Shown here: piece by piece, positions 2,927 to 49,301 of the stretch
How positions within the stretch are numbered: the first letter of the stretch is position 1
Layout: each line of letters opens with the position of its first letter
Origin: an uncultured bacterium
GTDB taxonomy: Bacteria; Patescibacteriota; Minisyncoccia; Phycocordibacterales; UBA6065
Assembly (NCBI GenBank): GCA_966243015.1
Contig: CBIMES010000001.1
Location: 214,837 to 278,836, forward strand
Reading direction: 5' to 3'
DNA length: 64,000 nt
Notes under the pieces: generated by a model
The model's input: the letters and a program-made list of their open reading frames with translations, nothing else
The model's database searches: none
What the model was told of the DNA's origin: nothing
Made by a program: the position numbers and the translations under genes

Positions 2927-2966
2927 GCCAATACTCTAGCATATCTGCCTCTGGTATACTTGCTTC

Positions 2967-4070
2967 ATGAACACAACCCTTCTCGTCATTCTGATCCTCG
3001 CCCTGGTTGGCATCAACGGCGCGATTCTGTTCGTCGTCCTGCGCCGAAGACCCGCTGACGCCCCGAAGGCTGACGATACGGGACTCAAGCTCCTCCTGGA
3101 CCAGATGAACGAGCTTAATCGCACCGTTGACCGCAGAATCAACGAGACGAGTCGCACTATCACGGAGTCCATGCGTGACCAGCGTAACGAGTCGCAGAAG
3201 GTGGCGGGCGAGTCTCAGCGCCTCGTCGACCAGTTCCTTCGCGAGATCAAGTCCGTGACCGAGAAGGTGACCCGCGTCGAGGAGACCGGCAAGCAGATGG
3301 TGGGCTTCGCTGACCAGCTTCAGGGCCTCCAGGACATGCTCAAGAACCCGAAGCAGCGCGGGGTGCTCGGCGAGTACTATCTCGAGACGCTCCTCAAGAA
3401 CGTCCTGCCGCCGGGAAGCTTCGAGATGCAGTACCCGTTCAAGGACGGCGAAATCGTCGACGCCGTGGTGCGGATCAAGGATAAGATTATACCCGTTGAC
3501 TCGAAATTCTCGCTCGAGAATTACAATCGTATCGTCGAGACAAGGGACGAGGCCGAGAAGTCTCGCCTCGAGAAGCTTTTCGTCAACGACCTCAAGCTTC
3601 GCATTCAGGAGACCTCGAAATACATTCGCCCAAGCGAGAACACCATGGACTTCGCCTTCATGTTCATCCCGCACGAGGCCATCTATTACGACCTGCTCGT
3701 GAATAAGATTGGCGCTATTACCGAGGACACTGACAACCTGATTCAGCGTGCGGCCAATAAATACAAGGTCATCATCGTCTCGCCAACCTCGTTCCTCGCG
3801 TATCTCCAGACGGTGCTCCAGGGACTCAAGGCCCTTCAGATCGAGGAGGCCGCCAAGGACATCACCAAGCGCGTCGAGGAGCTCGGTAAGCACCTTCGCG
3901 CCTATGAGGAGTATCACGATAAGCTCGGCAACAACCTTCAGACGGTGGTAAATCAGTACAACTTCTCGTCAAAGGAGCTTAAAAAAGTAGACAAAGACGT
4001 GCTTCGCATCACGGGAAACGCGGCGGGTCTCGATCCGATGCTTGTCGCGGGGCCGGAGAGGGAGGATTAG
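2967..4070 (+). CDS. rmuC: DNA recombination protein RmuC
   Basis: 367 aa with an N-terminal TM segment, a coiled-coil region and the conserved RmuC C-terminal core (…FAFMFIPHEAIYYDL…VIIVSPTSFLAYL…). An extended -10 (ctcTGgTATACT) sits 6 nt upstream of the ATG. Confidence 0.85.
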   Translation: MNTTLLVILILALVGINGAILFVVLRRRPADAPKADDTGLKLLLDQMNELNRTVDRRINETSRTITESMRDQRNESQKVAGESQRLVDQFLREIKSVTEKVTRVEETGKQMVGFADQLQGLQDMLKNPKQRGVLGEYYLETLLKNVLPPGSFEMQYPFKDGEIVDAVVRIKDKIIPVDSKFSLENYNRIVETRDEAEKSRLEKLFVNDLKLRIQETSKYIRPSENTMDFAFMFIPHEAIYYDLLVNKIGAITEDTDNLIQRAANKYKVIIVSPTSFLAYLQTVLQGLKALQIEEAAKDITKRVEELGKHLRAYEEYHDKLGNNLQTVVNQYNFSSKELKKVDKDVLRITGNAAGLDPMLVAGPERED

Positions 4071-4176
4071 GGTGCCGCGATATCGCGGGACATAAGGCAA
4101 CTTGCCTTTTTTGGGGCCCTGTGTAATACTATCGGGACCCCAGCCCTTAACAGGGCTCTATATATTTAAAGATTTT

Positions 4177-4536
4177 ATGGCTACCACCAAAGCAAAGAAG
4201 ACCGAGACCTCAGCTGATACCTTCGCGGTTATCATGACCGGAGGCAAGCAGTACCAGGTTCGCGTAGGCGACGAGCTCAAGATCGAGAAGATCACGGGCG
4301 AGCACAAGGTCGGCGACAAGCTCACCTTCGACAAGGTTCTCCTCGTCGACGCAGCGGGTGAGACCAAGATCGGCGCTCCAGAGGTCAAGGGCGCAACCGT
4401 ATCTGCCGAGATCAAGGAGATCGGCCGACTCCCTAAGGTCACCGTTGTTCACTACAAGCAGAAGTCAAAGTACTTCAAGAAGTACGGCCACAAGCAGCCT
4501 TTCTTCAAGGTAGCGATCACCTCGATCGCAGCATAA
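4177..4536 (+). CDS. rplU: 50S ribosomal protein L21 with a short N-terminal Lys/Thr-rich extension
   Basis: Translation (FAVIMTGGKQYQVRVGDELKIEKI…VVHYKQKSKYFKKYGHKQPFFKV) is a typical L21. The internal ATG at 4177 is chosen over the ORF-track start at 4102. A terminator hairpin follows at ~4540-4567. Confidence 0.9.
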   Translation: MATTKAKKTETSADTFAVIMTGGKQYQVRVGDELKIEKITGEHKVGDKLTFDKVLLVDAAGETKIGAPEVKGATVSAEIKEIGRLPKVTVVHYKQKSKYFKKYGHKQPFFKVAITSIAA

Positions 4537-4602
4537 CAAAAAGCCCCGCTCAAGCGGGGCTTTTGCTGTGTACATTGATGGTCGATAGACTATAATCAAA
4601 TT

Positions 4603-5427
4603 ATGAATAATCGTAGGATCGGGTTCACGCTCATCGAGCTTCTCGTCGTCATAGCGATCATCGGTCTTCTTTCGTCGGTTGTCCTCGCGAGCCTTAACTC
4701 TGCCCGAGAGAGGGCTCGCCTCGCGGCGGCCCAGTCTTTTGCATCGCAGACGTATCGCGCCCTCGGGGCCTCTGCTGCGGGAGCCTGGAACTTCGAGGGC
4801 CAGTCCGCCTCAATCGCGACTGACTTGTCGGGAAACAATAACGGCGGCACGATCTCGGGTTCAGTCACCTATGTCAGCGGTCCCGTGTCCTCCTCCGTCG
4901 CGATTGGCCTCTTCTCGGACTCCTACGTGCAAATTGTCGATGATCCCTCGCTCAACATGGGCACGGGCGATTTCACCATCATGGCCTGGGTCCGCACCGC
5001 GGGCTACGTTGCCCACGGATCAGCCTGGAACATCCTTATCGGCAAGGGAGACTGTTGCATTAGCCCTGGGTACGCTATCGGGTACGGCGCCAACAATCTG
5101 CCGGGATTATTCCTCGGGTCAGCCCAGGTCGCCGTCGCGAGCACGGCAATCGGTGATGACAAGTGGCATCATATCGCGGCGGTAAGGAAGGGCACTGAAG
5201 TCAAAATGTACGTTGACGGCAGGGAAAGCGGCTCGGGCACAGTGAGCGGCTCCACGAGCGCTAGCCCGTCGTCAGCTTTGTTTATAGGGAAGGATTCAAA
5301 CGGCGTGGTGAGGGCGATACGGGGATATGTCGATGATGTCGTCCTCGTTCCTTCGGCGCTCACGGCGTCAGAGGTGTTTCTCAGGTATGCAGAGAGCTCT
5401 CCGGCCCCTGTCGTCGCTACTGAGTAG
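4603..5427 (+). CDS. type IV pilin-like protein (prepilin N-terminal methylation/cleavage motif) with a C-terminal LamG/ConA-like jelly-roll domain
   Basis: N-terminus MNNRRIGFTLIELLVVIAIIGLLSSVVLASLN is a class III signal peptide (G/FTLIE). The C-terminal region (GDFTIMAWVRT…KWHHIAAV…MYVDG…FIGKD…RGYVDDVVLVPSALTASEV) is a Laminin_G_3-type fold. TATAAT lies 6 nt upstream of the ATG. Confidence 0.8.
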   Translation: MNNRRIGFTLIELLVVIAIIGLLSSVVLASLNSARERARLAAAQSFASQTYRALGASAAGAWNFEGQSASIATDLSGNNNGGTISGSVTYVSGPVSSSVAIGLFSDSYVQIVDDPSLNMGTGDFTIMAWVRTAGYVAHGSAWNILIGKGDCCISPGYAIGYGANNLPGLFLGSAQVAVASTAIGDDKWHHIAAVRKGTEVKMYVDGRESGSGTVSGSTSASPSSALFIGKDSNGVVRAIRGYVDDVVLVPSALTASEVFLRYAESSPAPVVATE

Positions 5428-6565: not shown

Positions 6566-7722
6566 AGCTCCTGTATGCCAAGGGTGCTTATCATGAAGGA
6601 CGAGAAAATCGTCTGAACCCCGAGGGCGATGAGGGTGAGGGCGACGATCGAGCTCTTTGCGGCATCGAGCGATCCAAACCCGGACTGGGCCCAGGCGATA
6701 AAGACAGAGGCGTACACGGCCGTGCCGACCAGCGCGATCAGCATTCCGGCGACGCAGGCTCTCTCGAGGGTTACCACCCTGAGCGCCCTTTCGAAGAGGG
6801 GGCTTCTTTCACCGAGGTGCGCGAAAGCGTACGCCTTTGAGAAGGCGGAGAACAAGACGAGCTGATATCCGATGATTACCGTGGCGGCGAGGGGGAACAT
6901 GGGGTGGACGTAGAAATGCATGCCAAATATAGTTGGGTCTGAGAGCAAGAACACGATAAGGCCCAGCGCGCCCGTGAGCGACAGGGCAATGCCCGGCGCG
7001 AGAAAGAGGGCGACGGGGGAGCAGAGGAGTATGAAGCGGAGGTGCCTCCAGCCGTCGGAAAAGGACCTGAGCTTTGACGCACCGGTTCTCGCCCTGTATC
7101 TCACGGGTATTTCGGCCATGCGAAGTCGCTGTTTTGCGGATTTGACGATCATCTCAGAGGCAAACTCCATGCCGCTCGTCCTGAGTCCGATTGCTTCAAA
7201 CCCACGTCGCGTTATGGCGCGGGCGCCGCAGTGCATGTCGCCGAGAGGCGCCTTGAAGAGCACCCTTACCAGCGTCGAGAGAAGGGGGTTGCCCAAGAAT
7301 CTGTGGAGAGGCGGCATGGCGCCCGGATCTATGCCTCCAGAGAATCTGTTGCCGACCACCAGGTCGTTTCCCTTGCTGATCTCGTCTACGAAGCGGGGAA
7401 TGTCGGAAAAGTCGTAGGTCCCGTCCATGTCTGCCATATAGATAATCTCGCCGCGCGCCTCCCTGAATCCTCGCAGGCAGGCGCTTCCGTAGCCTCGTCT
7501 TTCTTCGCGGACGAGCCTGAGGCCGGGAAAGGCTCTTGCCTCCTCTTCTATAATGGGGGCGCTTCGGTCAGTAGAGCCGTTGTCGACGACTATCACCTCG
7601 GCGCTGATGCTCTCGCGCAGGATGGTCTCACGGAGTGCTTTCAGGCATTTTTGCGCGGAGTCCTCCTCATTCAGGCATGGTATGACCACGGAGACGAGCG
7701 GGCTGTTCGAAGTGGGGCTCAT
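6562..7722 (-). CDS. glycosyltransferase family 2 with C-terminal TM helices; polyprenol-phosphate sugar transferase (ArnC/DPM1-like)
   Basis: N-terminal SVVIPCLNEE…VVDNGSTD…DMDGTY motifs (DXD) are followed by 4 predicted TM helices. Overlaps the GT4 gene by 4 nt (ATGA). Confidence 0.85.
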   Translation of the reverse strand: MSPTSNSPLVSVVIPCLNEEDSAQKCLKALRETILRESISAEVIVVDNGSTDRSAPIIEEEARAFPGLRLVREERRGYGSACLRGFREARGEIIYMADMDGTYDFSDIPRFVDEISKGNDLVVGNRFSGGIDPGAMPPLHRFLGNPLLSTLVRVLFKAPLGDMHCGARAITRRGFEAIGLRTSGMEFASEMIVKSAKQRLRMAEIPVRYRARTGASKLRSFSDGWRHLRFILLCSPVALFLAPGIALSLTGALGLIVFLLSDPTIFGMHFYVHPMFPLAATVIIGYQLVLFSAFSKAYAFAHLGERSPLFERALRVVTLERACVAGMLIALVGTAVYASVFIAWAQSGFGSLDAAKSSIVALTLIALGVQTIFSSFMISTLGIQEL

Positions 7723-7736
7723 GTTATGATGGCTAA

Positions 7737-9488
7737 ATGTTTCAGGTGATTATGGGCCTCGTATGCACGGCTGCCCCCTTTGCTCTGGTCTCTCTTTTTG
7801 GGGATAAGAGGAGAGGAATTCTTTGGGTCGCCCTGGGTATCCTCTCGCTTCACGCCCTCGTTGGCATCGGGTCTCAGGCCCTCGGTGTCTTTTCCTATCC
7901 CGTTGTCGCGACAGTCCATGTCTTGGCGTCTCTCGGGGCCTTGGCTTACGCGCTCTCGCGCGGTGCGGTGCGGGGGTGGTCCTTTTCCCGAGAGGGCCTC
8001 ATCGTACTTTGGGCTGTGGCAATTATAGTATTCCAGCTCGCGTTGGTCCATTACGACTATTCGGGGCCGGTGGCGTCGATAAAGGGTGAATCAATAGACA
8101 GGGGGGTGAATTATCCGTACCCACTGTTCTCTGATGAGTGGGTCGCCTCGTCGCTCATCTCTCACACCGTGAAGACCGGTTCGCTCCCCCTGGCGAATTC
8201 GCTCTGGGAGGGTGAGCGGTCGGTCAATCTCCTTGTGCCGTTCCATTCGCTTGCCTCCGAGGTCTCCCTTTTCTTCGGCCTCGATCCCGTTGTCGGCGTG
8301 CCTGTGCTTGCCATCGTGTTCGGTGCGCTGGTGTCTGTCTCGGCCATGTTCTTGGCGTGGTCCATGGGAGGAGGGGTGCTTGCTTCGGTGCTCGCGGGCG
8401 TCTTCGTTCCCTTAATCACGAATGGGTCAAACCTGCCGGGAATCTGGTTTCTCATGCCTTTCGTCGTCTCGCTCTCACCGTTCCTCTGGTTTCTATCTGC
8501 GCTTTCCGTGGGACGTCGTGGCCTCGCCGTCGGGTGCGGGTCCGTTTCGGTGCTCCTGTATCCTCCCATGCTGGTTTTTGTCCTTCCCGCGGGCCTTGCC
8601 TCTGCCTGGGGTTCGGGAAATGCCTTTTTGCGACGCACGTTTTTAATATGTGGTGCCGCCGTGCTCGCGGTCGCTTCGGCGGCAGGGCTCTCGGTGCTCC
8701 TGGGGCCAGGTGATTTTTGGGCGCGCGTATCAAGCGCTGTATTCCACGGCAATCTTGATGGGGGTGTCGCCTCTTACTCCTTCTGGAAGGTGCTGCCTGG
8801 GGCGCTCGCGCCCTTTTTCGTTCTCGGCTTCTTCAGGGCGTGGGGCAGGGAGTCTCGTCACGTTGTCGCCGCCGTCATCGTCGGTGCCTTTGCGTGGGTC
8901 GCGTACTCTGTGTTGCCGGTCGTGTTTCTTATAGAGCACCCTCGCGTCGTCGTCATAACGGCTGTCCTACTTTCGGTTTTCGCCGCGTTTGGTTTCTCCG
9001 CCGTCTTGGACGGTCTTCTCGGCACTCGACTCAGGCTTGTTTCTTGTGTGGTCGCGCTGGCTCTCGCTTCCTCAGTCTCCTTTTTGTACCCGTGGGGAGA
9101 CTCGTGGCGAGACCTCACGTTGTCGGTTCGCGCGGGCGGCGATGTCGTCACGGTGAGGCCCGCGGCACCGGTAAACCGCTATCTGCACCCTGATGACCTC
9201 AGGTTGTTCGAGGGTGTAACGGGCTCTCGCTTCATAGCGCCGCCCTGGAAGGGTCTCGTCATTGGCGCCGCGACGGGGAATTACCCTCTTGAGTCAAAGG
9301 CCTCCACTATTACGAACAGATACGTTCTCTATGCTGACTTCATGTCTTCTGGTTGTGATGCCAAGGCATCGATTGCCCAAGAGTGGAAGGTGTCTGTGGT
9401 CTATTCTGAGCCGTTTGATTGTAACGGCTTCCGTTCAACGGCCACGAGTTCTGAGGGTCTGGTGTTCTATCGCGTTCGTGGCTTCTAG
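7737..9488 (+). CDS. polytopic integral membrane protein, probable GT-C-type glycosyltransferase (ArnT/PMT/YfhO-like) partner of the adjacent GT2
   Basis: 583 aa with ~12 hydrophobic helices in the N-terminal 450 aa and a soluble C-terminal domain. The GT2 plus GT-C gene pair is the classic polyprenol-phosphate-sugar glycosylation arrangement. An extended -10 (TGtTATGAT) sits 6 nt upstream of the ATG. Confidence 0.6.
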   Translation: MFQVIMGLVCTAAPFALVSLFGDKRRGILWVALGILSLHALVGIGSQALGVFSYPVVATVHVLASLGALAYALSRGAVRGWSFSREGLIVLWAVAIIVFQLALVHYDYSGPVASIKGESIDRGVNYPYPLFSDEWVASSLISHTVKTGSLPLANSLWEGERSVNLLVPFHSLASEVSLFFGLDPVVGVPVLAIVFGALVSVSAMFLAWSMGGGVLASVLAGVFVPLITNGSNLPGIWFLMPFVVSLSPFLWFLSALSVGRRGLAVGCGSVSVLLYPPMLVFVLPAGLASAWGSGNAFLRRTFLICGAAVLAVASAAGLSVLLGPGDFWARVSSAVFHGNLDGGVASYSFWKVLPGALAPFFVLGFFRAWGRESRHVVAAVIVGAFAWVAYSVLPVVFLIEHPRVVVITAVLLSVFAAFGFSAVLDGLLGTRLRLVSCVVALALASSVSFLYPWGDSWRDLTLSVRAGGDVVTVRPAAPVNRYLHPDDLRLFEGVTGSRFIAPPWKGLVIGAATGNYPLESKASTITNRYVLYADFMSSGCDAKASIAQEWKVSVVYSEPFDCNGFRSTATSSEGLVFYRVRGF

Positions 9489-10165: not shown

Positions 10166-10209
10166 AGTATACCAGAATTTCGGCGCATGCGGGTGAGTTC
10201 TGGTATACT
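10166..10209. promoter_or_regulatory. symmetric divergent promoter: two inverted 11-bp arms (gtataccagaa / ttctggtatac), each containing an extended -10 (TGGTATACT) facing outward, with a central cgcatgcg palindrome
   Basis: Perfect 11-bp inverted repeat with a 20-bp spacer. The right arm is the -10 for gap (ATG 10236) and the left arm read on the minus strand is the -10 for the HTH gene (ATG 10141). Confidence 0.5.
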
Positions 10210-11876: not shown

Positions 11877-12033
11877 AATCGTGTGCGTCGTGACGTTTCT
11901 GTGCGGGGTGGGGTACTCCTGACAAAGGTCCTTTGGGTATAAGTATCTGCCTTTTGCGGGGGAACGCCAGAAGGTTGTACACATGCTCCTCGGTACGGCT
12001 CTACAGGGCCCTTGGTCGTGATAGAATGAACAC

Positions 12034-12489
12034 ATGAGAATATTCATCGCAAGCGATCACGCCGGCTTCGAGCTCAAGAGGTTTCTCGTAGAGAGGCTCT
12101 CCCTCGCGGGACACGATGTGCGCGACCTGGGCGCGAAGGAGTTTGCCCCAGAGGATGACTATCCTGACTTCATATCTCTGGTGGGCAAGGAGATATCGCG
12201 CGAGCCAAGCTCGGTCAAGGGTATCGTCATCGGAGGCTCCGGCCAGGGCGAGGCGATTTGCGCCAATAAATTCTATGGCGTACGCGCCGTGGTCTATTAC
12301 GGCGGAAACACCGACATCGTGCGCCTCTCGCGCGAGCATAACGATGCGAATGTGCTCTCTCTCGGCGCACGGTTTCTCTCTGCGACTGACGCGCTCAACG
12401 CAGTCAATCTCTGGCTTGCCACGGCGTTCTCTGGGGACGAGAGGCACAAGAGGCGCATCCAAAAGCTCTATAACATCACCCATCTCTAG
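12034..12489 (+). CDS. rpiB: ribose-5-phosphate isomerase B (RpiB/LacAB family)
   Basis: 151 aa (MRIFIASDHAGFELK…GSGQGEAICANK…) typical of RpiB. An extended -10 (TGaTAGAAT) sits 6 nt upstream of the ATG. Confidence 0.9.
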   Translation: MRIFIASDHAGFELKRFLVERLSLAGHDVRDLGAKEFAPEDDYPDFISLVGKEISREPSSVKGIVIGGSGQGEAICANKFYGVRAVVYYGGNTDIVRLSREHNDANVLSLGARFLSATDALNAVNLWLATAFSGDERHKRRIQKLYNITHL

Positions 12490-12998: not shown

Positions 12999-13717
12999 TG
13001 CGTTATACTATTTCCATGAACGACATCATTCCCGCAATCCTTCCCAAGTCATACGCAGAGCTCGAGGACAAGCTCGGCTTGATAGCCTCGCACGCGCCCC
13101 TCGTGCAGATCGATATCTGCGATGGCGCGTACACGCAGTCGCGCACATGGCCGTACCTCAAGGGCGACTTTGACCAGATCTTCCAGGACATCATCGAGCA
13201 GAACCAGGCGCTTCCGGGCTGGGAGGAGATCGACTTCGAATTCGACCTCATGGTCAAGAATGCCCACGAGAAGATCCCTGATTTCATCTCAGCCGGCGCC
13301 TCGCGCATTGTCGTCCACAAGGACAGCCTGTCCGCGGACGAGCTCGAGGGCGTCGTAAGCGACTTCGGCAGGAAGTCGGAGGAACTGGGGCCCTTTGACA
13401 TCGAGCTGGGCGTCGCCCTCTCGAGCTCCGCGTCCGCGGGTGACATCGCCCCGCTTGTCGACAGGATTCACTTCGTCCAGGTCATGGGCATTGCGCAGGC
13501 GGGTTTCCAGGGCCAGCCGTTTGACCCTCGTGCGGTTGAGCTCGTGGCAGCCCTTCGCTCGGCATACCCCGATCTCCCGATATCGGTTGACGGGGGAGTG
13601 AATCTCGAGACCGCCAGGACTCTCCTTGATGCGGGTGCGGACCGCCTGGTCGTTGGTTCGGCACTTTTCAATGCGCCGAGTCTTATCGACGCGCTCGAGG
13701 GATTCCGATCCCTCTAG
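12998..13717 (+). CDS. rpe: ribulose-phosphate 3-epimerase-like TIM-barrel protein
   Basis: 239 aa with the Rpe-family pattern (…VQIDICDG…IVVH…FVQVMGIAQAGFQGQ…ISVDGGVN…LVVGSALF). Lies in a pentose-phosphate cluster with rpiB and tkt. Start overlaps the pilin stop. Confidence 0.75.
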   Translation: MRYTISMNDIIPAILPKSYAELEDKLGLIASHAPLVQIDICDGAYTQSRTWPYLKGDFDQIFQDIIEQNQALPGWEEIDFEFDLMVKNAHEKIPDFISAGASRIVVHKDSLSADELEGVVSDFGRKSEELGPFDIELGVALSSSASAGDIAPLVDRIHFVQVMGIAQAGFQGQPFDPRAVELVAALRSAYPDLPISVDGGVNLETARTLLDAGADRLVVGSALFNAPSLIDALEGFRSL

Positions 13718-14620: not shown

Positions 14621-14779
14621 ATGGCAATACAACCACGCTGCGATTTTTGCGGTAAGGAGCTCGTCGATTTCGGCGCGCTTCTCTTCAGCGCGCCTGACGC
14701 GAACAGCATGGTTCTCAAAGACCACGTCTGCAAGGCGTGTTACGCAAAGGTGATTGCCCTCAAGGAAACCAATTTTTAA
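14621..14779 (+). CDS. putative small zinc-ribbon protein (52 aa, CxxC…CxxC)
   Basis: Hand-translated ORF MAIQPRCDFCGKELVDFGALLFSAPDANSMVLKDHVCKACYAKVIALKETNF. It is too short for the ORF track. Starts 4 nt after the tkt-N stop. Coordinates approximate. Confidence 0.35.
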   Translation: MAIQPRCDFCGKELVDFGALLFSAPDANSMVLKDHVCKACYAKVIALKETNF

Positions 14780-14788
14780 TTTAATTGC

Positions 14789-15367
14789 ATGCAACCGCCA
14801 CGATCCCGAACGTACTGGCTTCACCGCATCATCCTGATCCTCGTGTCGGGGCTCTCTGTCGTTATTCTCTTTTCCGCTCTCGGCAAGTACGGCGGGGTAG
14901 ATGCGGGAGGCGTCCTGGGCTCTATCGCCCGGATGAAATACACGCCTCATGTGGCGCTAGCGGTCATGCTTATTGCCGCTTTGGTGACGGCCTACGACAT
15001 GGTCGCGACGCGGGCCCGCATGAGGAGGAGGGAAGCTGAGATTGATGCCCGCCTCGCGCCCTTCCGTCCCGAGGGTCAGCAGGGCGCCCCTGTGCCGTCT
15101 CAACCAGTCGCAGGCGGGTGGTCGTGGAAGAAAATCCTCGTCGAGGCCGTAGGATGGTACGGCGCGGCGGGCCTTCTTTCAGCCTATCTTCTCTCGAGCT
15201 TCGATATCCTCCACCCGAATCAGCCCCTTTACCAGATTCTCAATGTGACCGCGGCTCTCGGTATCGTTATCGTGTCCCTGAGCAAGAAAAACTATCAGCC
15301 GGCGGTTCTCGACATCATCTGGGCGACGATCGGAACCATCTCGCTTGTCAGGATGTTCGTGTCCTAG
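14789..15367 (+). CDS. hypothetical membrane protein (192 aa, 4-5 TM helices) inserted between the two transketolase genes
   Basis: ORF-track ORF with clearly hydrophobic segments at both ends. Confidence 0.55.
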   Translation: MQPPRSRTYWLHRIILILVSGLSVVILFSALGKYGGVDAGGVLGSIARMKYTPHVALAVMLIAALVTAYDMVATRARMRRREAEIDARLAPFRPEGQQGAPVPSQPVAGGWSWKKILVEAVGWYGAAGLLSAYLLSSFDILHPNQPLYQILNVTAALGIVIVSLSKKNYQPAVLDIIWATIGTISLVRMFVS

Positions 15368-15389
15368 TTGGTTGCGACGGTGTGGTAAA

Positions 15390-16403
15390 ATGAAAACCAT
15401 GATTTCTCCTTCCCAAAAACTCAATCCAAAGGTCTTCGAAAAGGACGTCGAGCAGGTGCCGATCCGCAAAGGCTTTGGCGAGGGTCTCCTCGCAGCGGGA
15501 GAGGCGGACAAGAACGTGGTCGGCCTCTGCGCGGACCTTACGGACTCGACGCAGATGAATCTCTTCCGCGACAAGTTCCCCGAGAGGTTTGTCCAGGTGG
15601 GCGTTGCCGAGCAGAACTTGGCCACTGTCGCATCGGGTATGGCGGCCATGGGTAAGGTGCCGTTTATAACCTCGTACGCCACGTTCTCCCCGGGGCGAAA
15701 CTGGGAGCAGATTCGTACCACCATCGCGTATAATGACGTGCCTGTTAAGGTTGTCGGTTCGCATGCGGGCGTATCTGTCGGTCCTGACGGAGGCACCCAT
15801 CAGGCCATCGAGGACATCGCGCTCATGCGCGCCATACCGAACATGACCGTTGTCTCGCCGTGTGACTCGATCGAGGCGAAGAAGGCGACCGTCGCCCTCG
15901 CGAAGACGGGCAAGCCCGCATACATTCGCCTTATTCGCGAGAAAACGCCTGTCGTGACTACCGTCGACACTCCGTTCGAGCTCGGCAGGGCCCAGGTCTT
16001 CTTCGAGCCTATAGCGGGACTGCCTGACGTGGCGATTATCGCCACGGGTGCCCTCGTCCACAAAGCTCTCGTTGCCGCACGCGACCTCGAAAAGGAGAAG
16101 ATCGGTGTCCGCGTCGTCAACCTCGCGACCATCAAGCCGCTTGACGAAGACACGCTCGTTCGGGCTGCCCGTGACGCTGGCGCTCTCGTTACCGTCGAGG
16201 AGCATCAGGTCGCGGGAGGCATGGGATCAGCCATCGCCGAGCTTCTGGCCGCAAAGTCTCCCGTGCCGATTGAGTTCGTCGGCGTCCAAGACAGGTTCGG
16301 GCAGTCGGGAACTCCGAGCGAGCTCGTCGAGCACTATGGCATGGGCGTCTCCCACATTGTTGCCGCAGCGAAGAGGGTGATTGCGAGAAAGTCGAAGAAA
16401 TAG
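15390..16403 (+). CDS. transketolase, C-terminal (pyrimidine-binding plus C-terminal domain) subunit
   Basis: Matches transketolase Pyr and C-terminal domains (…FGEGLLAAGEADKNVVGLCADLTDST…VGSHAGVSVGPDGGTHQAIEDIA…). An alternative leaderless start lies at 15399 (MISPSQ), 7 nt after TGGTAAAAT. A terminator follows at ~16418-16455. Confidence 0.9.
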   Translation: MKTMISPSQKLNPKVFEKDVEQVPIRKGFGEGLLAAGEADKNVVGLCADLTDSTQMNLFRDKFPERFVQVGVAEQNLATVASGMAAMGKVPFITSYATFSPGRNWEQIRTTIAYNDVPVKVVGSHAGVSVGPDGGTHQAIEDIALMRAIPNMTVVSPCDSIEAKKATVALAKTGKPAYIRLIREKTPVVTTVDTPFELGRAQVFFEPIAGLPDVAIIATGALVHKALVAARDLEKEKIGVRVVNLATIKPLDEDTLVRAARDAGALVTVEEHQVAGGMGSAIAELLAAKSPVPIEFVGVQDRFGQSGTPSELVEHYGMGVSHIVAAAKRVIARKSKK

Positions 16404-17087: not shown

Positions 17088-17133
17088 GGCCACTAGTATA
17101 GCAAAACCAACCCTTACTTCGTATAATGGGAAC

Positions 17134-20014: not shown

Positions 20015-20134
20015 GGTGTGCCCATTGTATGTCATCAAGCGGACGTCAAGGAAGGGTAAAGGGAGGATAAAACTGGGGAGGGCATGTGGATAATTAATTT
20101 GATGCGGAAAAGCCGTGTTAATATCTACTATGAT

Positions 20135-27501: not shown

Positions 27502-27544
27502 GGAGAAAGTATAAATCACGCATGCCCGATTCCTCATAAATTGA

Positions 27545-29001: not shown

Positions 29002-29036
29002 GGGTGTGGATTGGTGACTATAGTATAATGGCACCC

Positions 29037-32036: not shown

Positions 32037-32115
32037 TACTAGCGATCCCTCTCAGGAAAACCCGCCCTCCCGGCGGGTTTTCTTTTTGCCCGGGGCTCTC
32101 TGATATACTGTGCTT

Positions 32116-33365: not shown

Positions 33366-33448
33366 ACGAGAGGGTGAGTATCAAATCTAAAACGAAAGAC
33401 CGCCTCGCAAGGGGCGGTCTTTTGCTGTGCGTCTGGTACACTGTGCCT

Positions 33449-38563: not shown

Positions 38564-40130
38564 GATCAGCGCATTTCTTGAGCGCCGCGTCGATTCGCCT
38601 GAGTACGGTCTCTTTGCCCAGAATTGCGGAGAGGGTGAACGGATTCGGCGACTTGTCCTTGCCCGACAGTGAGTAGCGAAGGGGCCACAGGACTGCTCCC
38701 CTGCCGTTCGCGTCCGCATAGGGCCAGACGGCGGCCTTGATGCCCTCCTCGGTCCAGTCCCCTGCCCTGACGCCCTCGATGACGCCGCGGACGTGCGTGA
38801 GGTGCTTCACGGTGTTCGAGAGGTCCGGCTCGTCCTTCCATTTGAGCGACAGCGCGTCGTAGTTTGGCTCGCTGAAATAGTAGTCGAGGTCCCGCTCGAG
38901 AATCATCTCGTCGATGTCGGAATACACCTCGATGCGATCGAGGATGACGGGCGCGATTGCCTTTACGGCTTCGTCGGTCACCTTCCAGCCGAGGTCCTTT
39001 GCCCGCTCGTTTGATTCGATGCGGTCCTTGATGGTCGCCTCGAGCTCGGCTCGCGGCAGGAGCTTGATGTGCTCCTTGTTCATCCAGCGGAGCTTCTCCT
39101 CGTTGAAGACGCCTCCCGCCTTGTGGATCTTCGAGATCTCGAACTCCTTCACGAGGCCTTCCTTGGTGAAGACCTCCTGCTCGGTGCCGGGATTCCAGCC
39201 GATGAGGGCGAGGAAGTTAACCATCGCTGACGAGAGGTATCCCTCCTTGCGGTACTCGAGGATATCCTTTGCGCCGTCTCGCTTGCCAAGCTTCTTGGTC
39301 TTGTCGCTGCGGAGAATCGGCGGAAGGGTTACGAGAACAGGAGGCTTGATGCCGAGAGCCTCGTAGAGGGCGAGGAACTTCGGGGTCGACGAGATGAACT
39401 CGTCGGCGCGCATGATGTGCGTCACGCCCATGAGGAGGTCGTCGATGATGTGCGCGAAGTTGTAGGTTGGGTAGCCGTCCTTCTTGATGAGAATGAAGTC
39501 GTCGAGAGCCTCCTCGCCCGCCTCGAGTCGCCCGCGTACCTCGTCCTTCCAGACGGATCGTCGCGGCGTACCTGAGTTAAAGCGGAGCGCCTGCGTACCG
39601 TCCCACTTCCCAAAGGTCTTTGGGCGATGGCGTCGGAAGAGGAAGGGCTTCTTGGCCGCCTCTGCCTGCGCGCGGAAGGCCGCGATCTCTTCGGTGGTGT
39701 ATGGGTCAGGATATGCGAGACCCTTGTCGACGAGCTCCTGCGCGTACTTGCGATAGGTGTCGAGTCGCTCGGACTGAATGCACGAGCCGAAAGGATTCTG
39801 CCTGTCCGGGCCGTAGTCCCAATTAATATCGAGCCATTTGAGTGTCTCCTGAATGTGCTCGATCGAGCCCTCGACCTCTCGCTCGGTATCGGTGTCCTCG
39901 ATGCGGAGGATGAAGGTGCCGCCGTGCTTGCGGGCCCAGAGATGCGCGAAGAGCGCGGTGCGTGCGCTGCCGATATGCATAAAGCCCGTCGGCGACGGCG
40001 CGAAGCGGGTCACCACGCCTGCGCGGTCGGCAGGAATACCCGAAAGGCTTTCGCTCGATGGTACTGACGGTTTTTTGCCGGTTTTGGTCGAAGGTTTCCT
40101 TGAAAAGAAGGCCTTGATGCGGGAAATCAT
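38547..40130 (-). CDS. gltX: glutamate--tRNA ligase with an ~40-aa N-terminal extension
   Basis: …VVTRFAPSPTGFMHIGSARTALF… (HIGH region) and …KKLGKRDGA… (KMSKS-like) with the GluRS catalytic-domain pattern. Confidence 0.9.
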   Translation of the reverse strand: MISRIKAFFSRKPSTKTGKKPSVPSSESLSGIPADRAGVVTRFAPSPTGFMHIGSARTALFAHLWARKHGGTFILRIEDTDTEREVEGSIEHIQETLKWLDINWDYGPDRQNPFGSCIQSERLDTYRKYAQELVDKGLAYPDPYTTEEIAAFRAQAEAAKKPFLFRRHRPKTFGKWDGTQALRFNSGTPRRSVWKDEVRGRLEAGEEALDDFILIKKDGYPTYNFAHIIDDLLMGVTHIMRADEFISSTPKFLALYEALGIKPPVLVTLPPILRSDKTKKLGKRDGAKDILEYRKEGYLSSAMVNFLALIGWNPGTEQEVFTKEGLVKEFEISKIHKAGGVFNEEKLRWMNKEHIKLLPRAELEATIKDRIESNERAKDLGWKVTDEAVKAIAPVILDRIEVYSDIDEMILERDLDYYFSEPNYDALSLKWKDEPDLSNTVKHLTHVRGVIEGVRAGDWTEEGIKAAVWPYADANGRGAVLWPLRYSLSGKDKSPNPFTLSAILGKETVLRRIDAALKKCADHALNS

Positions 40131-40244
40131 GGGTTAAGTATACCCCGACCGCCAGGCCTCTTATTATTGTAATAAGACAATTTTTGTGTCGTAATATACA
40201 GGGATATGCCTCGTTATCCTTCGAGAGTGGGCCTTTGTCAGAAA

Positions 40245-41442: not shown

Positions 41443-41628
41443 TTAGCCTCGTCTTCCGAATATTGATCGGAGGCCTTTGGTTACGCGCGAATGTTCTTCT
41501 GATTTAGAGTGACCAACGTTTCGTTGTCGGCCGCCTCCACTGTTTGAACTGGGCGACGAGGAATCCCTTCGGCCTTTTGACCGTTGGAAACTGGCACCCT
41601 TGTCGGCGTTAACGTGTTTTTTAGGCAA
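41443..41628 (-). CDS. small basic Ser/Gly-rich protein (61 aa) with TTG start and a perfect Shine-Dalgarno
   Basis: The minus strand reads AAAGGAGGTGAtaagactTTG… and a downstream hairpin plus T-run terminator lies at ~41401-41440. The composition is low-complexity and KGG/stress-protein-like. Tentative. Confidence 0.45.
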   Translation of the reverse strand: MPKKHVNADKGASFQRSKGRRDSSSPSSNSGGGRQRNVGHSKSEEHSRVTKGLRSIFGRRG

Positions 41629-41732
41629 GTCTTATCACCTCCTTTCTGGGTTTGAGGTTATCAAAGGCGAGCTAAAATTCTCATAAAGAATTATTCAAGA
41701 AAAGTAAAAGCCCCACTCACTGGGGCTTCTGC

Positions 41733-42881: not shown

Positions 42882-43985
42882 TTATTTTAGCATATACCGG
42901 GATATGTTGAGCAGGATGCCCGCCTGGCCTAGGGCGAACAAGAGCGCCGTTCCTCCCTGGCTCACGAACGGCAGCGGGATGCCCGCGATCGGCAGGATGC
43001 CAATCATCGAGCCGATGTTGATGAATGCCTGGCAGATCATGAAGGTGGCGACGCCGACGATCACGTACGCGCCGAACGGGTGGCTCGACCTATTGGCGAC
43101 GACGAACGAGCGCAGGGTGAAGGAGACGAAGAGGGCGATGAGGGCGGTGCTGCCGATGAGGCCGAACTCTTCTGCTGCCACGGCGAATATCGAGTCGCCG
43201 ACAGGCTCGGGCAGATAGTTGAACTTCTGTATGCTCTGGCCGAATCCCCTGCCGTCGATGCCTCCCGACCCCACGGCGATGAGCGACTGCTGGATTTGGT
43301 ATCCCGAGCCAAGGCCGTTCTGGGCAGGATTAAGGAAGGTGTTCACGCGCGAGGCGATGTAGTCCGACGTCATGTACACCGCGCCAAGGCCAAGGGCGCC
43401 TGTGACGCCGAGGGCGATGACCCAGCGCCACTGCCCTCCCGCGGCAAGGTACATGGCCGTCAGGGCCACGATGATGACGGCAAGGGTGTCGTGGTCGGGC
43501 TGCGCCAGAAGGAGCATCGAGACGATGGCGATGATGATCAGAAGCGGCAGGAATCCCTCCTTGAATGTAGAGACCCTTTCCCGCACCGAGGAAAGCCATG
43601 CGGCAAAATAGAGGACCGCGCCGATTTTGAGCATCTCGGACACCTGGAACGTGAATCCGCCGAGGTCTATCCAGCGCGTCGCGCCTCCGTGCGAGAAGCC
43701 AATACCGAGCCACGGTATGAGGATGAGGATGTTGAGGATGATGGCGAGCAGGAATATCCAGAATGACATCTTTCGCCAGTAGAGGAAGTGAATCCTCGAC
43801 GTTGCGTAAAGGGCGACGAGGCCGGGCACGAGGCCGAAGAAGATCTGCCTGAAGGCGATCGAGCCAAACTGTACCGAGTCGCGCGACAGGAGGCCGAGCG
43901 ACGCCGAGAGAAAGATGAGGAAGCCCGCGCCCGCGAGGAGGAGGATCGATATAAGGAGCTGTCTGTCCATGCGGGCCTTTTTCAT
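42882..43985 (-). CDS. ftsW: SEDS-family peptidoglycan polymerase FtsW/RodA
   Basis: 10 TM helices with conserved SEDS segments (…GATRWIDLGGFTFQVSEMLKIGAVLYFAAWLS…, …PDHDTLAVII…). The internal Met start is supported by an extended -10 (TGaTATGAT) 7 nt upstream on the minus strand. Confidence 0.85.
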   Translation of the reverse strand: MKKARMDRQLLISILLLAGAGFLIFLSASLGLLSRDSVQFGSIAFRQIFFGLVPGLVALYATSRIHFLYWRKMSFWIFLLAIILNILILIPWLGIGFSHGGATRWIDLGGFTFQVSEMLKIGAVLYFAAWLSSVRERVSTFKEGFLPLLIIIAIVSMLLLAQPDHDTLAVIIVALTAMYLAAGGQWRWVIALGVTGALGLGAVYMTSDYIASRVNTFLNPAQNGLGSGYQIQQSLIAVGSGGIDGRGFGQSIQKFNYLPEPVGDSIFAVAAEEFGLIGSTALIALFVSFTLRSFVVANRSSHPFGAYVIVGVATFMICQAFINIGSMIGILPIAGIPLPFVSQGGTALLFALGQAGILLNISRYMLK

Positions 43986-44041
43986 GAGCATCATCATATC
44001 AGTGAGAGGCGAAATCAAAAAGTGTCTGCTAGAATATTTAC

Positions 44042-44440
44042 ATGAAAATCATCAATAACATTCTTCGAGTTTTGCTCGCTCTGCTTCTCGTAAGCCCTAT
44101 TCTCGGCACTCTCGGCGTCTTCCCCGCCCCGACCGCCGACATGTACAACACAGCGGCTGGCTGGAACTTTATCCAGGCGCTCTACGCGGTACCGTACATC
44201 ATGTACGTCATGGCCGCGGTCTTTGCCGTCGCCATCGGCCTTATCGTTACTAACCGTATGGCCCTCGCCGCGCTCCTCATTCTCCCTATTACGGTGAATA
44301 TCATTGGCTTCCACGCCTTCCTCGACGGCGGCCTTCTTACCGTGGGCGCCATCATGGCGAACGCCCTCGCCCTCATCAACATTTACTTCCTCTGGAGGAG
44401 CCGTGGCGTGTACCGCATTCTCCTCGCCAGGAACGGCTAA
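44042..44440 (+). CDS. hypothetical membrane protein (132 aa, 4 TM helices)
   Basis: ORF-track ORF. An extended -10 (TGcTAGAAT) sits 6 nt upstream of the ATG, and a terminator follows at ~44455-44490. Confidence 0.55.
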   Translation: MKIINNILRVLLALLLVSPILGTLGVFPAPTADMYNTAAGWNFIQALYAVPYIMYVMAAVFAVAIGLIVTNRMALAALLILPITVNIIGFHAFLDGGLLTVGAIMANALALINIYFLWRSRGVYRILLARNG

Positions 44441-47336: not shown

Positions 47337-47407
47337 GGTCGCGTTTGCCATCGGAAAGACCGGCGCCTTACCCGCGTTGGCCGGGGGTTCAATTCCCCTC
47401 GCGATCA
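47337..47407 (+). other. tRNA-like element: canonical T-arm (GGGGG-TTCAATT-CCCCT), 7-bp acceptor stem (GGTCGCG/CGCGATC), U8, A14 and GG in a D-loop-like segment, but no canonical D or anticodon stem
   Basis: Read by eye. The GGTTCAATTCC T-loop consensus is unique in the window. The central 37 nt cannot be folded into standard D and anticodon arms (position 37 would be C), so this may be a degenerate tRNA, a pseudogene or a tRNA-like structure. Confidence 0.25.
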
Positions 47408-47655
47408 TCACCAGCATACACGTGCCGGCGCCCGGGCCCTGCCCAGGTGTTAACCTCAGATAGAAAGTAGTAAGTCCATGTCCTTTGTAGTCATCATACA
47501 TAGTGACGGAACCGTGGAGCGAGTCGAGAGCCTCAAGGCGCTCGTCGCCGTCGCCGCGGACATCCGCACGTCACGCTAACGCGTGAAAAACACACCTCAA
47601 AGGACTTCTTGTCGAGCGCCCCTCCCCTCCGGGATCGGGCGCTTTTTCTTTGCGC

Positions 47656-48462
47656 CTACTGGCCGGGAACGGCTGCGTACACGCGAGCATTCGAGAGGTT
47701 GCCGTAGAGGGAATAGGTCCCACCGTACCCCATGCCGCCGAGCCCCATCTCGCCGGGCATTGTGGCGAGGGGCGCCGCGATGCTTCCGCTGCCGACCTGG
47801 GTTCCGTTTGCGTAAAGGGTTACCGATCCCCCGTTGCGAACTGCGGCGATATGAGTCCATTTGTTCAAAGGAGCCACGCCCGCCTGCGAAATCACCGAGG
47901 GCCAGGCGCTGCCCGTGAATACGCCAAACGACACCCCTCCGTTCGAGGTGAGTCCGAGGTTGTAGTTCATGTCAGAGTATCTTCCCCCACGAACCACGGC
48001 TGTACCCGCACCGCCGTATGCGGTAGGACGCACCCACGCGGACACCGTCACGTCACCTGTTATGCCGAGTTGTGGATTGGCGGTGCCAACGGGAGCGATT
48101 GCAAGACTCGTGTCGCCGCCAGAAAGAAGAAGGGAGCATCTGTTGTCGTAGGGGCCCTGGTTAGAGGACCATGATGCGGCGGCCTGAAGAGTTGCTGTGA
48201 CGCTCCTTCCCGATTTATCTGCCGCGGCCACGCCAGAGCATTCGTCAAAATCCCACCACCCCACAGCCCTGTCCCCGAGGGTTCTGTCGAGCATGGATGC
48301 GAACTGCTTGCCCGCGGCGAGACGGGCCCTGTCACGGGCCGCGTTCACGCTCGCCAAGACCACGCTCGAGAGGAGGCCGATGATCGATATGACCACGAGG
48401 AGCTCGATGAGAGTGAAGCCGTGTGAATCTCTTATGTTATCCAGTTTGATTAGAGTGGACAT
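47656..48462 (-). CDS. type IV pilin-like protein with a LamG/ConA-like domain
   Basis: N-terminus …DSHGFTLIELLVVISIIGLLSSVVLASVN. The C-terminal region (…VTVSAWVRPTAYGG…KWTHIAAVRNGGSVTLYANGTQVGSG…) is LamG-like. Confidence 0.8.
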   Translation of the reverse strand: MSTLIKLDNIRDSHGFTLIELLVVISIIGLLSSVVLASVNAARDRARLAAGKQFASMLDRTLGDRAVGWWDFDECSGVAAADKSGRSVTATLQAAASWSSNQGPYDNRCSLLLSGGDTSLAIAPVGTANPQLGITGDVTVSAWVRPTAYGGAGTAVVRGGRYSDMNYNLGLTSNGGVSFGVFTGSAWPSVISQAGVAPLNKWTHIAAVRNGGSVTLYANGTQVGSGSIAAPLATMPGEMGLGGMGYGGTYSLYGNLSNARVYAAVPGQ

Positions 48463-48472
48463 GCTTTGGGTT

Positions 48473-49237
48473 TTATTCGAGAGTTGGGTAATACACTCTC
48501 AACGAGTCAATTTGACCGACCCAGTACTCGCTTGGCAACGTCTGCCACGAGCGGGCAAAAGCCGTTTGGACGCCACCCATGTCGATAATGCTGGCGCTCG
48601 GCAGCGAGACCTCCTTGTCGAGCTTACCGTCGATGTAGAACTTGTAGCCGACGCCTCCCTCGAGCAGAAACGCGATGTGAGTCCACTTGTCGAGGGGAAT
48701 GGTCGCGTTCGACTGCGGCCAGTGGTTGCCGCCTGCGTTTATCATGAGCTGAAGCCTGCGCGATGGGTTGACCCCGAAGTAGAGAAAGCCCGGAAAGCCG
48801 TTCGCGATCATGCTATAGCCGCCGCTCACATACTGGGTCGGCTTGACCCATGTCATGAGCAGGATTTTACCGTTTGCCCCGCCGACCAGATCAATGCTCG
48901 ACCTCAGGTCTGGAACTGATACATAGCTATTCCCGTCGAAAGAGAGGGCTCCGCCGCTCGGGCCTGCCGTCCACTGGGGCGTTCCCGAGAAGGATCCGTG
49001 TCTTCCAGCGCCGGAAATATCCTGGGGAGCGCTACCGGATCCGTCGTTGAGCTCCCATATTCCGAGGGCGTTGTTGGCGTAGGCGCTGTGCATGCTTGCC
49101 GCAAAACGAATTCCCGAGGATATGCGCGCCTTCTCCCGAGCAGCGTTCACGCTCGACAGCACGACGCTCGAGAGGAGGCCGATGATCGATATGACCACGA
49201 GGAGCTCGATGAGGGTGAATCCGCGCGACGCTTTCAT
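48473..49237 (-). CDS. type IV pilin-like protein with a LamG/ConA-like domain (tandem with the gene at 47656..48462)
   Basis: N-terminus MKASRGFTLIELLVVISIIGLLSSVVLSSVN. The C-terminal region (…KILLMTWVKPTQYVSGG…KWTHIAFLLEGGVGYKFYIDGKLD…) is LamG-like. An extended -10 (TGGTATAAT) sits 8 nt upstream of the ATG. Confidence 0.8.
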   Translation of the reverse strand: MKASRGFTLIELLVVISIIGLLSSVVLSSVNAAREKARISSGIRFAASMHSAYANNALGIWELNDGSGSAPQDISGAGRHGSFSGTPQWTAGPSGGALSFDGNSYVSVPDLRSSIDLVGGANGKILLMTWVKPTQYVSGGYSMIANGFPGFLYFGVNPSRRLQLMINAGGNHWPQSNATIPLDKWTHIAFLLEGGVGYKFYIDGKLDKEVSLPSASIIDMGGVQTAFARSWQTLPSEYWVGQIDSLRVYYPTLE

Positions 49238-49301
49238 GTCCTCTGATTATACCAGAACATCTGGAGCGCATGGTGTATACTTTTCCCTGAAAACCCTTCC
49301 C

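Follow-up and report, generated by a model that had tools for sequence, protein, structure and literature searches.

In a 64,000-nucleotide stretch of DNA from an uncultured patescibacterium (contig CBIMES010000001.1 of assembly GCA_966243015.1, positions 214,837 to 278,836; the whole 64 kb is referred to below as the window), we find that almost half of the genes carry a promoter-like -10 box only 6-9 nt upstream of the start codon. Judging from the sequence, leaderless mRNA (a transcript that begins at its own start codon) is very probably the commonest expression mode for the first genes of transcription units in the window. The counts and alignments below establish directly the identity of the motif, its spacing, its specificity for ATG, the correctness of the start codons, conservation in the lineage, and the absence of any enrichment for Shine-Dalgarno (SD) sequences. 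The window has a GC content of 54-59% and comes from a reduced genome (57% GC) of Candidatus Paceibacterota (Parcubacteria), in the candidate phyla radiation (CPR). Its genes (a list of 61, obtained by self-trained codon-usage calling) agree with such a source: they include numerous genes for type IV pilin-like proteins, a transketolase in two parts, rpiB, gap, ftsW and murG, and aminoacyl-tRNA synthetase genes of several kinds.

Spacing, conservation and start codons

An earlier interpretation of this DNA, made without database searches (the sequence-only reading), had claimed that a TAnnnT box ends 6-8 nt before the ATG of 13 named genes, and this is borne out for all 13: the gap is 6 nt at rmuC (ATG 2967), the gene at 7737, rpiB (12034), the pilin genes at 17134 and 4603, the exonuclease gene at 32116, pgeF (33449) and the gene at 44042; 7 nt at recR (17087), ctpA (29037), ftsW (43985) and the gene for the C-terminal transketolase subunit (tktC, 15399); and 8 nt at the pilin gene at 49237. 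The "at least 13 genes" given there holds as an undercount, since 28 of the 61 starts (46%) have a box at 6-9 nt, with a TGn extension in 16 of the 28. If a gene counts as the first of its transcription unit when it either diverges from the preceding gene or is separated from it by 40 nt or more, 22 of the 28 candidates qualify, which amounts to 22 of 41 first genes (54%); the 6 further candidates sit 5-33 nt behind an upstream gene. The description of leaderless expression as the default is thus supported by about 46% of all genes and 54% of first genes, but the word is somewhat strong, since the rest have short leaders that lack an SD.

The preferred spacing also appears in counts that do not use gene calls, in which every TANNNT followed by an ATG was tallied at each distance (d) on both strands and compared with dinucleotide shuffles. 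TANNNT-6 nt-ATG was observed 32 times in the window versus 10.1±3.1 in the shuffles (about 7 standard deviations), and TANNNT-7 nt-ATG 21 times versus 10.6. For the extended motif the contrast is sharper: TGNTANNNT-6 nt-ATG occurs 10 times versus 0.7, and a pattern search with its own separate shuffles gave 10 versus 0.58 expected (17-fold), with 0 of 100 shuffles reaching 10; nine of these ten exact matches coincide with called gene starts. Similarly, TA[TC]A[AC]T precedes ATG 8 times at d=6 and 6 times at d=7, versus about 0.4 in shuffles. The peak belongs to ATG only, with the extended motif counted 10, 4, 3 and 1 times at d=6-9 in the window, and 67, 55, 41 and 61 times in 690 kb of related DNA (about 10-20 at other distances), while the counts for GTG, TTG and CTG are flat in both data sets. 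Escherichia coli starts, used as a control (49 kb, 65 annotated genes), show no such excess (2, 0, 0 and 0 at d=6-9).

Related loci were collected with recR as the query, keeping one genome per species; this gave 42 loci, all from metagenome-assembled genomes labelled Candidatus Paceibacterota, Parcubacteria or Patescibacteria (among them one Ca. Taylorbacteria, as well as Kaiser-, Nomura- and Vogelbacteria), the best match being 82% identical. At the 217 orthologous ATG starts in these loci, TANNNT is found 41, 20, 20 and 24 times at d=6, 7, 8 and 9, against about 7 at each other distance, and TGNTANNNT is found 18, 11, 9 and 13 times, against about 1; altogether 105 of the 217 starts have a box at 6-9 nt, versus about 28 expected, in flanking DNA that is otherwise unalignable. 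The distance between box and start codon therefore peaks in the related loci as well as in the window. Where the recR orthologue lies directly behind an upstream gene (e.g., in loci L025-L027 and L030) the box is absent. Its recurrence in relatives, combined with this absence at operon-internal positions, indicates a property of the lineage and a promoter-like behaviour.

We checked the start codons by the coordinates of Pfam model matches and by orthologue alignments from residue 1. The models begin close to the proposed N-termini (protein residue/model position: YqeY 5/2, RpiB 3/1, Rpe 4/2, RecR 5/2, the exonucleases at 32116 2/1 and 62445 4/1, FtsW 9/2, TrpS 6/6, and L9 1/1), and in four pilin-like genes the prepilin N-methylation motif starts between residues 1 and 5. 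For four genes, all orthologues align from their first residue, encoded by ATG (recR, 41 of 41; tktC, 11 of 11; rpiB and rpe, 10 of 10 each); 18 of the recR orthologues have the box at 6-9 nt, and 15 of these 18 also have the TGn. The suspicion that several starts in the open reading frame (ORF) track were too long proved right as well, since the longest-ORF start is wrong for seven genes (recR, ctpA, pgeF, the exonuclease gene, ftsW, tktC and the pilin gene at 17134). Public gene calls on identical contigs match the leaderless starts of recR, the pilin genes at 17134 and 17951, rpiB and the gene at 14789; for tktC, rpe and dnaB, 3 of the 14 neighbouring genes, they disagree with the start that homology supports.

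Promoter shape and Shine-Dalgarno use

Aligning the 28 cases on the hexamer gives the consensus T-n-TGn-TAtAcT (c or a at the fifth hexamer base), in which positions -5 and -3, counted from the hexamer, favour T and position -2 favours G; the two TG positions hold T in 20 and G in 19 of the 28. There is no -35 element, the information content of the aligned cases being less than 0.4 bit across -40 to -25. By its sequence, then, the motif is an extended -10, -35-less promoter of the sigma-70 type. Extended -10 sigma-70 promoters (with TGn, or the "TRTG" -16 region) occur in E. coli and Gram-positive bacteria, and the boxes in the window resemble them in having TG one base before the hexamer, an extra upstream T and a dispensable -35; unlike there, where such promoters are a minority class, in the window this looks like the main promoter type. 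The string CTGGTATAMT occurs 5 times in the window (0.06 expected), each time as a promoter box, and the 15-mer that had been noted as common to the exonuclease and pgeF genes, TAYACTGTGCYTATG, is present exactly twice, at 32104 and 33437, with 0 expected.

The position of the box relative to the start is also that of a promoter. With the modal 6-nt gap, the A of the ATG is the seventh base after the hexamer, i.e., the canonical +1. Among the 28 extended -10 motifs located within 120 nt upstream of starts, 16 lie at 6-9 nt, 1 at 0-5 nt, 7 at 10-40 nt and 4 beyond; an identical extended -10 is found 10-32 nt before other first genes. This variable distance at leadered genes is promoter-like, since a ribosome-binding signal would hold a fixed distance.

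From this geometry we infer the transcription start sites (TSSs) and the mode of ribosome recruitment. A housekeeping RNA polymerase of the sigma-70 type would recognise the extended -10, T-n-TGn-TAtAcT, without a -35, and transcription would begin about 7 nt after the hexamer, at the A of the ATG, giving a transcript with neither a 5' untranslated region (UTR) nor an SD. Decoding would presumably proceed by the ribosome and initiator tRNA binding the 5'-terminal AUG directly, a route that has been shown experimentally in Deinococcus, Mycobacterium and E. coli. Since only about 16 bp are needed, such promoters can follow a terminator immediately, share the gap between two divergent genes (back to back or overlapping) and sometimes lie inside the end of the upstream gene. 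SD-led initiation would be limited to a few genes, of which the gene at 41628 is the clearest case.

The window holds examples of such packing. The start codons of divergent pairs are 40 nt apart at 2926/2967, 14 nt at 7722/7737, 46 nt at recR/pilin, 35 nt at cysS/ctpA and 56 nt at ftsW/44042; their -10 boxes stand back to back, as the sequence-only reading described for recR/pilin, cysS/ctpA and ftsW/44042, and those of cysS and ctpA even overlap (TATACT at 29022-29027 on the reverse strand and TATAAT at 29024-29029 on the forward strand), which implies mutually exclusive binding of the polymerase. At pgeF, the exonuclease gene, the pilin gene at 4603, trpS, the gene at 27501 and the gltX of one relative (L002), the box comes 14-27 nt after the end of a terminator hairpin, so that the -35 position falls inside the terminator or against it; at pgeF and the L002 gltX it is within the stem. 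Terminators this near and divergent ATGs only 14-56 nt apart leave no space for a promoter further upstream.

SD use was scored as the pairing of positions -20..-1 with the 16S tail ACCUCCUUA, with a cut-off at or below -6 kcal/mol. Of the E. coli control starts, 65% pass, versus 9% of random ATGs (p=5e-27). The window gives 10% for all starts and 12% for the 33 non-leaderless starts, versus 17% for random ATGs, and the relatives give 4-5% versus 11%; pairing below the level of random ATGs suggests avoidance of SD-like sequences rather than their mere absence. Likewise, SD 4- and 5-mers peak at 5-8 nt in E. coli and form a slight bump in the pooled relatives, while no distance peak before ATG was found for them in the window. 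Positions -15..-1 of the 33 non-leaderless starts contain 16% G, against 28% on the coding strand (12% against 22% in the relatives), and are rich in A and C, for example caccaatccacaccc before cysS and ctaactcacatcaacacc before gap. In the window, then, initiation does not generally depend on an SD, the use of which is at chance level overall and rarer than the sequence-only reading implied. Most of the other genes carry a short leader (about 6-25 nt) that is rich in A and C, poor in G and lacks an SD, or they abut or overlap the gene upstream. The 3' end of 16S rRNA was sought in the window and the 42 loci and none was found, and Rfam at its gathering thresholds gave no match in the window.

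Among the genes credited with textbook SDs, those at 41628 and 2330 are convincing, but scpA and the M23 gene at 53064 score no better than random ATGs (-5.5 and -5.4 kcal/mol). The gene at 41628 (41443..41650, reverse strand) encodes a very basic protein of 61 aa, starts with TTG and has a perfect 12-nt SD, AAAGGAGGTGAT, 6 nt upstream. The protein is conserved in 6 relatives; upstream of its homologues the DNA diverges except for GAAAGGAG(G), kept in L048 and L050, and GGAGA, kept in L049. We thus rejected the idea that there is no SD at all, since the perfect SD of this gene is conserved in relatives. The other convincing case is a 72-aa ORF on the reverse strand (2115-2330, the element extending to 2410) with the perfect promoter TTGACA-17-TGtgTATAAT, a leader of ~40 nt and AAGGAG 8 nt before ATG 2330; it was left unselected by the codon-usage caller and has no homologue in the related loci fetched. 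The gene starting with GTG at 469 has an AGGAGG SD and is another exception.

Further first genes have predicted leaders without an SD. The promoter pair of a MerR-type helix-turn-helix (HTH) gene and gap occupies 10166..10209 on both strands, with the boxes 24 nt before ATG 10141 (HTH) and 26 nt before ATG 10236 (gap), and the predicted leaders of their mRNAs are ~18-20 nt long. The inverted repeat noted earlier at this place is real and perfect, but its arms (10166-10177 and 10198-10209, 100% complementary, each reading TTCTGGTATACT) are 12 bp long and not 11 bp. cysS (ATG 29001) has a predicted leader of ~13 nt, again without an SD. Other leadered first genes include scpB (~6 nt); the gene at 37233, murG and scpA (boxes at 19-23 nt); the ORF at 30675 (box at 32 nt); the gene for L27; an SLT-like gene at 32907, with a leader of ~98 nt; and a class II aminoacyl-tRNA synthetase gene at 50787. 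A -35 element seems to mark the promoters of RNA genes and of genes with (long) leaders, and its absence those of leaderless genes.

Several observations concern these leaders themselves. A full consensus promoter (TTGACA-17-TGcTACAAT, 32774-32802, forward strand) precedes the SLT-like gene, whose leader opens with a hairpin and a T-run (32811-32830); another (TTGACA-16-TGgTATAAT, 30708-30735, reverse strand) stands before a 78-aa membrane ORF, with a leader of ~25 nt. The class II (Asp/Asn/Lys-type) synthetase gene (49492-50787) is preceded by a T-box-like leader (50879-51068, reverse strand; 37 bits, E=1.2e-4, below the Rfam gathering score of 93), which is among the few long regulatory leaders.

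Candidate leaderless starts and neighbouring features

We list the candidates with the span of the element, strand, box, gap and ATG. At the left end of the window, a YqeY-like gene (2924..2941, -; TGC-TAGAGT, 6 nt, ATG 2926) was absent from the sequence-only list; it is the divergent partner of rmuC, and its box is present at 15 of 20 orthologous starts. The rmuC element (2952..2969, +; TGG-TATACT, 6 nt, ATG 2967) precedes a gene with a Pfam RmuC match, and the box is found at 4 of 4 orthologous starts aligned at residue 1. These are followed by a pilin-like gene with N_methyl (residues 3-28) and Laminin_G_3 domains (4588..4605, +; TATAAT, 6 nt, ATG 4603), just downstream of a terminator hairpin, and by a gene for a 583-aa membrane protein (7722..7739, +; TGT-TATGAT, 6 nt, ATG 7737), which starts 14 nt from a divergent GT2 gene (7722); no Pfam match was found for the 583-aa protein, and the name "GT-C" given to it earlier is not confirmed. 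rpiB (12019..12036, +; TGA-TAGAAT, 6 nt, ATG 12034) has the box in 6 of 10 orthologues. The candidate promoter of rpe (13001..13018, +; TATACT, 6 nt, ATG 13016) is internal and overlaps the end of a pilin gene; homology bears out the start codon, but just 1 of 10 relatives has the box. For tktC (15383..15401, +; TGG-TAAAAT, 7 nt, ATG 15399) the public calls place the start at ATG 15390. recR (17085..17103, -; TGC-TATACT, 7 nt, ATG 17087) and a pilin-like gene (17119..17136, +; TATAAT, 6 nt, ATG 17134; N_methyl at residues 5-30) have their ATGs 46 nt apart.

In the middle of the window, dnaB (20012..20032, -; TACAAT, 9 nt, ATG 20014) would be leaderless or have a leader of 1-3 nt, and the box is present in 7 of 10 orthologues. 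A 117-aa gene (27499..27516, -; TATACT, 6 nt, ATG 27501) lies ~27 nt after a strong terminator hairpin (27549-27580), and ctpA, encoding an S41 peptidase (29019..29039, +), has TATAAT at 29024-29029, 7 nt before ATG 29037. rplI, for L9 (30768..30788, +; TGC-TAATCT, 9 nt, ATG 30786), keeps the box in 13 of 28 orthologues. The RNase T-like exonuclease gene (32101..32118, +; TGA-TATACT, 6 nt, ATG 32116) has a terminator just upstream, and TGn boxes in 7 of 11 orthologues; at the pgeF/YfiH-like gene (33434..33451, +; TGG-TACACT, 6 nt, ATG 33449) a terminator hairpin (33395-33422) ends 14 nt before the box.

The gltX element (40128..40145, -; TATACT, 6 nt, ATG 40130) gives the protein a 38-aa N-terminal extension. 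In L002 a terminator, TGaTATAAT, 6 nt and an ATG precede the same MISxIxAF N-terminus, and we ruled out the shorter start (GTG 40016) since this relative keeps the extension, the ATG and the box. We also ruled out an overlap of 173 nt between gltX and the M23 gene (38547-38719, -), since relatives have stop codons in the M23 extension; the M23 gene thus starts at ATG 38563 and overlaps gltX by ~17 nt.

Toward the right end, ftsW (43983..44001, -; TGA-TATGAT, 7 nt, ATG 43985) and a gene for a 132-aa membrane protein (44027..44044, +; TGC-TAGAAT, 6 nt, ATG 44042) have ATGs 56 nt apart, and a pilin-like gene (49235..49254, -; TGG-TATAAT, 8 nt, ATG 49237) has its N_methyl motif at residues 1-27. 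The others are a 222-aa gene (51852..51870, -; TGA-TAAACT, 7 nt, ATG 51854); trpS (54676..54693, -; TGA-TACTCT, 6 nt, ATG 54678), with the T-rich tail of a terminator just upstream; the gene for a 1242-aa surface protein (60394..60413, -; TGG-TATACT, 8 nt, ATG 60396); an ExoX-like exonuclease gene (62443..62461, -; TACACT, 7 nt, ATG 62445); and a 138-aa gene (63369..63386, -; TGA-TATCAT, 6 nt, ATG 63371). A weak candidate (14774..14791, +; TAATTT, 6 nt, ATG 14789), without TGn and 9 nt after the upstream gene, and three similar ones (17935-17953, +; 25702-25720, +; 62947-62967, -) may be chance matches in AT-rich junctions. The tenth exact TGNTANNNT-N6-ATG match (54533-54550, +) is antisense within trpS, either a chance match or an antisense start.

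Several of the neighbouring features deserve a description of their own. The 64 kb contain six type IV pilin-like genes with N_methyl (4603-5427, 12492-12998, 17134-17940, 17951-18436, 47656-48462 and 48473-49237), four of them fused to a Laminin_G_3/concanavalin-like domain, and four with candidate leaderless starts (that at 17951 being weak). The transketolase is split (13766-16403, +), and between the genes of its N- and C-subunits lie an ORF of 52 aa and a membrane ORF of 192 aa, the latter CBU_0592-like in public annotation. The start of the N-subunit is probably ATG 13766, which has TGGTAGAAT 15 nt before it and would leave a leader of ~8 nt, and not 13751. Two very large surface proteins are predicted, of 1840 aa (20135-25657, +) and 1242 aa (56668-60396, -); both end in a peptidoglycan-binding domain, and the 1242-aa protein, whose gene has a candidate leaderless start, adds fn3 and GDSL-like domains. 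The sole tRNA in the 64 kb, tRNA-Val(TAC) (47337-47407, +), lies between scpA and an opposite-strand pilin gene. In addition, there is a candidate structured non-coding RNA on the reverse strand (44538-44997), in which a perfect consensus promoter, TTGACA-16-TGcTATAAT (44997-44970), is followed by ~425 nt (44538-44962) without an ORF longer than 56 aa and with a strong intrinsic terminator at ~44575-44540. The 44538-44962 region folds much better than its shuffles (z=-5.9) and has no Rfam match even at E≤10; a scan of metagenomes brought up one close relative (L051), in which merely ~13 nt at the 5' end (GGTTCTTTGAGAT) align.

Rival readings and known systems

Could TAnnnT instead be an AT-rich, non-SD translation signal (cf. 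group B of GeneMarkS-2, in Bacteroidota), carried on leadered mRNAs that come from promoters further upstream? It would suit this idea that the region before all starts, leaderless or otherwise, is A/T-rich and G-poor, that the SD is unused in the window, and that a few boxes come so soon after another gene (5-17 nt) that read-through transcripts must cover them. We nevertheless consider it unlikely, since the motif has the promoter-specific TGn extension and upstream T, is missing at operon-internal orthologues, and appears in identical form before other genes at distances that vary from 10 to 32 nt; the space that an upstream promoter would need is taken up by terminators and by the coding regions of divergent genes, and the modal 6-nt gap equals the distance from -10 to TSS. 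Mis-assigned start codons would be a different kind of error: the real starts would lie downstream, the boxes would be ordinary promoters, and the supposed N-termini would be 5' UTRs. The genes at 7737, 44042, 51854, 63371 and 27501, having no Pfam match, lack homology support for their first residues, and the gltX domain begins only at residue 39; against this, the Pfam models of most genes begin at residues 1-9, the prepilin N_methyl motifs need the short leader peptides that the proposed starts give, the orthologues of recR, tktC, rpiB and rpe align from residue 1 with a conserved ATG, the extension and box of gltX are conserved in L002, and a distance peak specific to ATG would not arise from irrelevant ATGs, so that we regard mis-assignment of several starts as very unlikely. 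As for chance or composition, by which AT-rich intergenic DNA would give a TAnnnT near any start codon, intergenic DNA is indeed AT-richer than coding DNA, and the loose TANNNT by itself is only weakly in excess in the AT-rich relatives; but the excess in the window is sharply positional (d=6-8) and 7 standard deviations above dinucleotide shuffles, and for the extended motif it is 17-fold, ATG-specific and absent at E. coli starts. The shuffle, positional, ATG and E. coli tests contradict this explanation, which is already refuted.

Some points also weigh against the leaderless interpretation that we prefer. The leaderless state is deduced from promoter geometry. The start choices preferred ATG and partly used the -10 box itself, which is offset by the gene-call-free counts and the homology checks. 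When TANNNT only is counted without gene calls in the relatives, the excess is 0.7-2.3-fold per 20-kb locus; we attribute this to a loose motif being swamped in AT-rich genomes, since the signal is clear with orthologous starts and with the extended motif. Moreover, 4-6 of the 28 cases are weak (without TGn, in AT-rich junctions 5-17 nt after a gene, or with a 9-nt gap that allows a leader of 1-3 nt), and the conserved SD of the gene at 41628 means that the organism may retain an anti-SD, so "SD-free" is not absolute.

Extended to the lineage, the leaderless interpretation may mean that Paceibacteria have nearly abandoned SD initiation, with about half of the genes ATG-first and leaderless, most others having short G-poor leaders, and the SD kept on a handful; to us this broader statement is about as likely to be right as wrong. 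If true, the near-loss of the SD would be the mRNA-side counterpart of, and an explanation for, the loss of the anti-SD in many Parcubacteria, and the CPR would join the leaderless-rich clades of the Terrabacteria type. A promoter of 16 bp without a leader would let reduced genomes pack their promoters tightly, and a wider taxonomic range of leaderless-dominated expression bears on whether leaderless initiation is ancestral or was repeatedly favoured. There is also a practical side: gene finders that assume an SD or take the longest ORF misplace starts here, which distorts the N-termini and the signal and prepilin peptides of CPR proteins, for most of which metagenomes are the only source.

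A survey of ribosomes could detect the anti-SD motif in only 48% of Parcubacteria 16S rRNAs and left the consequence for initiation open (Tsurumaki et al., 2022; PMC9297842). That study concerns the same lineage and predicts SD-independent initiation, as the mRNA side shows here; it examined rRNA and not the start regions of mRNAs, and the organism of the window may retain an anti-SD, given the gene at 41628. For Parcubacteria whose 16S rRNA lacks the anti-SD, leaderless mRNAs would be a concrete answer to how initiation works. Our literature searches on leaderless mRNAs and SD sequences in CPR lineages found no paper describing leaderless mRNAs in the CPR, and the sole CPR set of TSSs found in the literature, for Nanosynbacter, was inferred from RNA-seq coverage.

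Leaderless transcriptomes have been described in Deinococcus deserti (de Groot, 2014) and in Mycobacterium tuberculosis and M. smegmatis (Cortes, 2013; Shell, 2015; all cited in PMC6028130). The window resembles them in having a -10 directly before the start codon in a large fraction of genes, with the TSS, here predicted, at the start codon. Deinococcus and Mycobacterium have mapped start sites and proteomics, whereas the present case is known from sequence alone. Mycobacterial leaderless mRNAs also begin with GTG, unlike in the window, where the peak is ATG-only.

The closest known arrangement is "group C" of GeneMarkS-2, which is defined by a Pribnow box 6-8 nt from the start of first genes. 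About 90% of Actinobacteria and 97% of Deinococcus-Thermus belong to it, and for D. deserti and M. tuberculosis its predictions were checked by differential RNA sequencing (Lomsadze et al., 2018; PMC6028130); the MetaGeneMark-2 preprint gives the consensus TANNNT and places some code-4 Mycoplasma genomes in group C. The window shares with group C the TANNNT box 6-8 nt before first genes, and its leaderless share of about 46-54% compares with the 25-50% predicted there. It differs in lineage, being CPR rather than one of the Actinobacteria or Deinococcus-Thermus that mainly make up the group, and in its remaining genes, which use the SD in group C but show SD complementarity at or below chance here. 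The A-rich, G-poor leaders of the non-leaderless genes are reminiscent of group B, with its A-rich non-SD ribosome-binding sites; unlike in group B, however, where the motif keeps a fixed distance before all genes, the box is missing at internal genes and stands at variable distances before leadered ones. The kind of feature is thus known, in the form of the group C layout, and what differs is the lineage and the absence of an SD fallback in the other genes.

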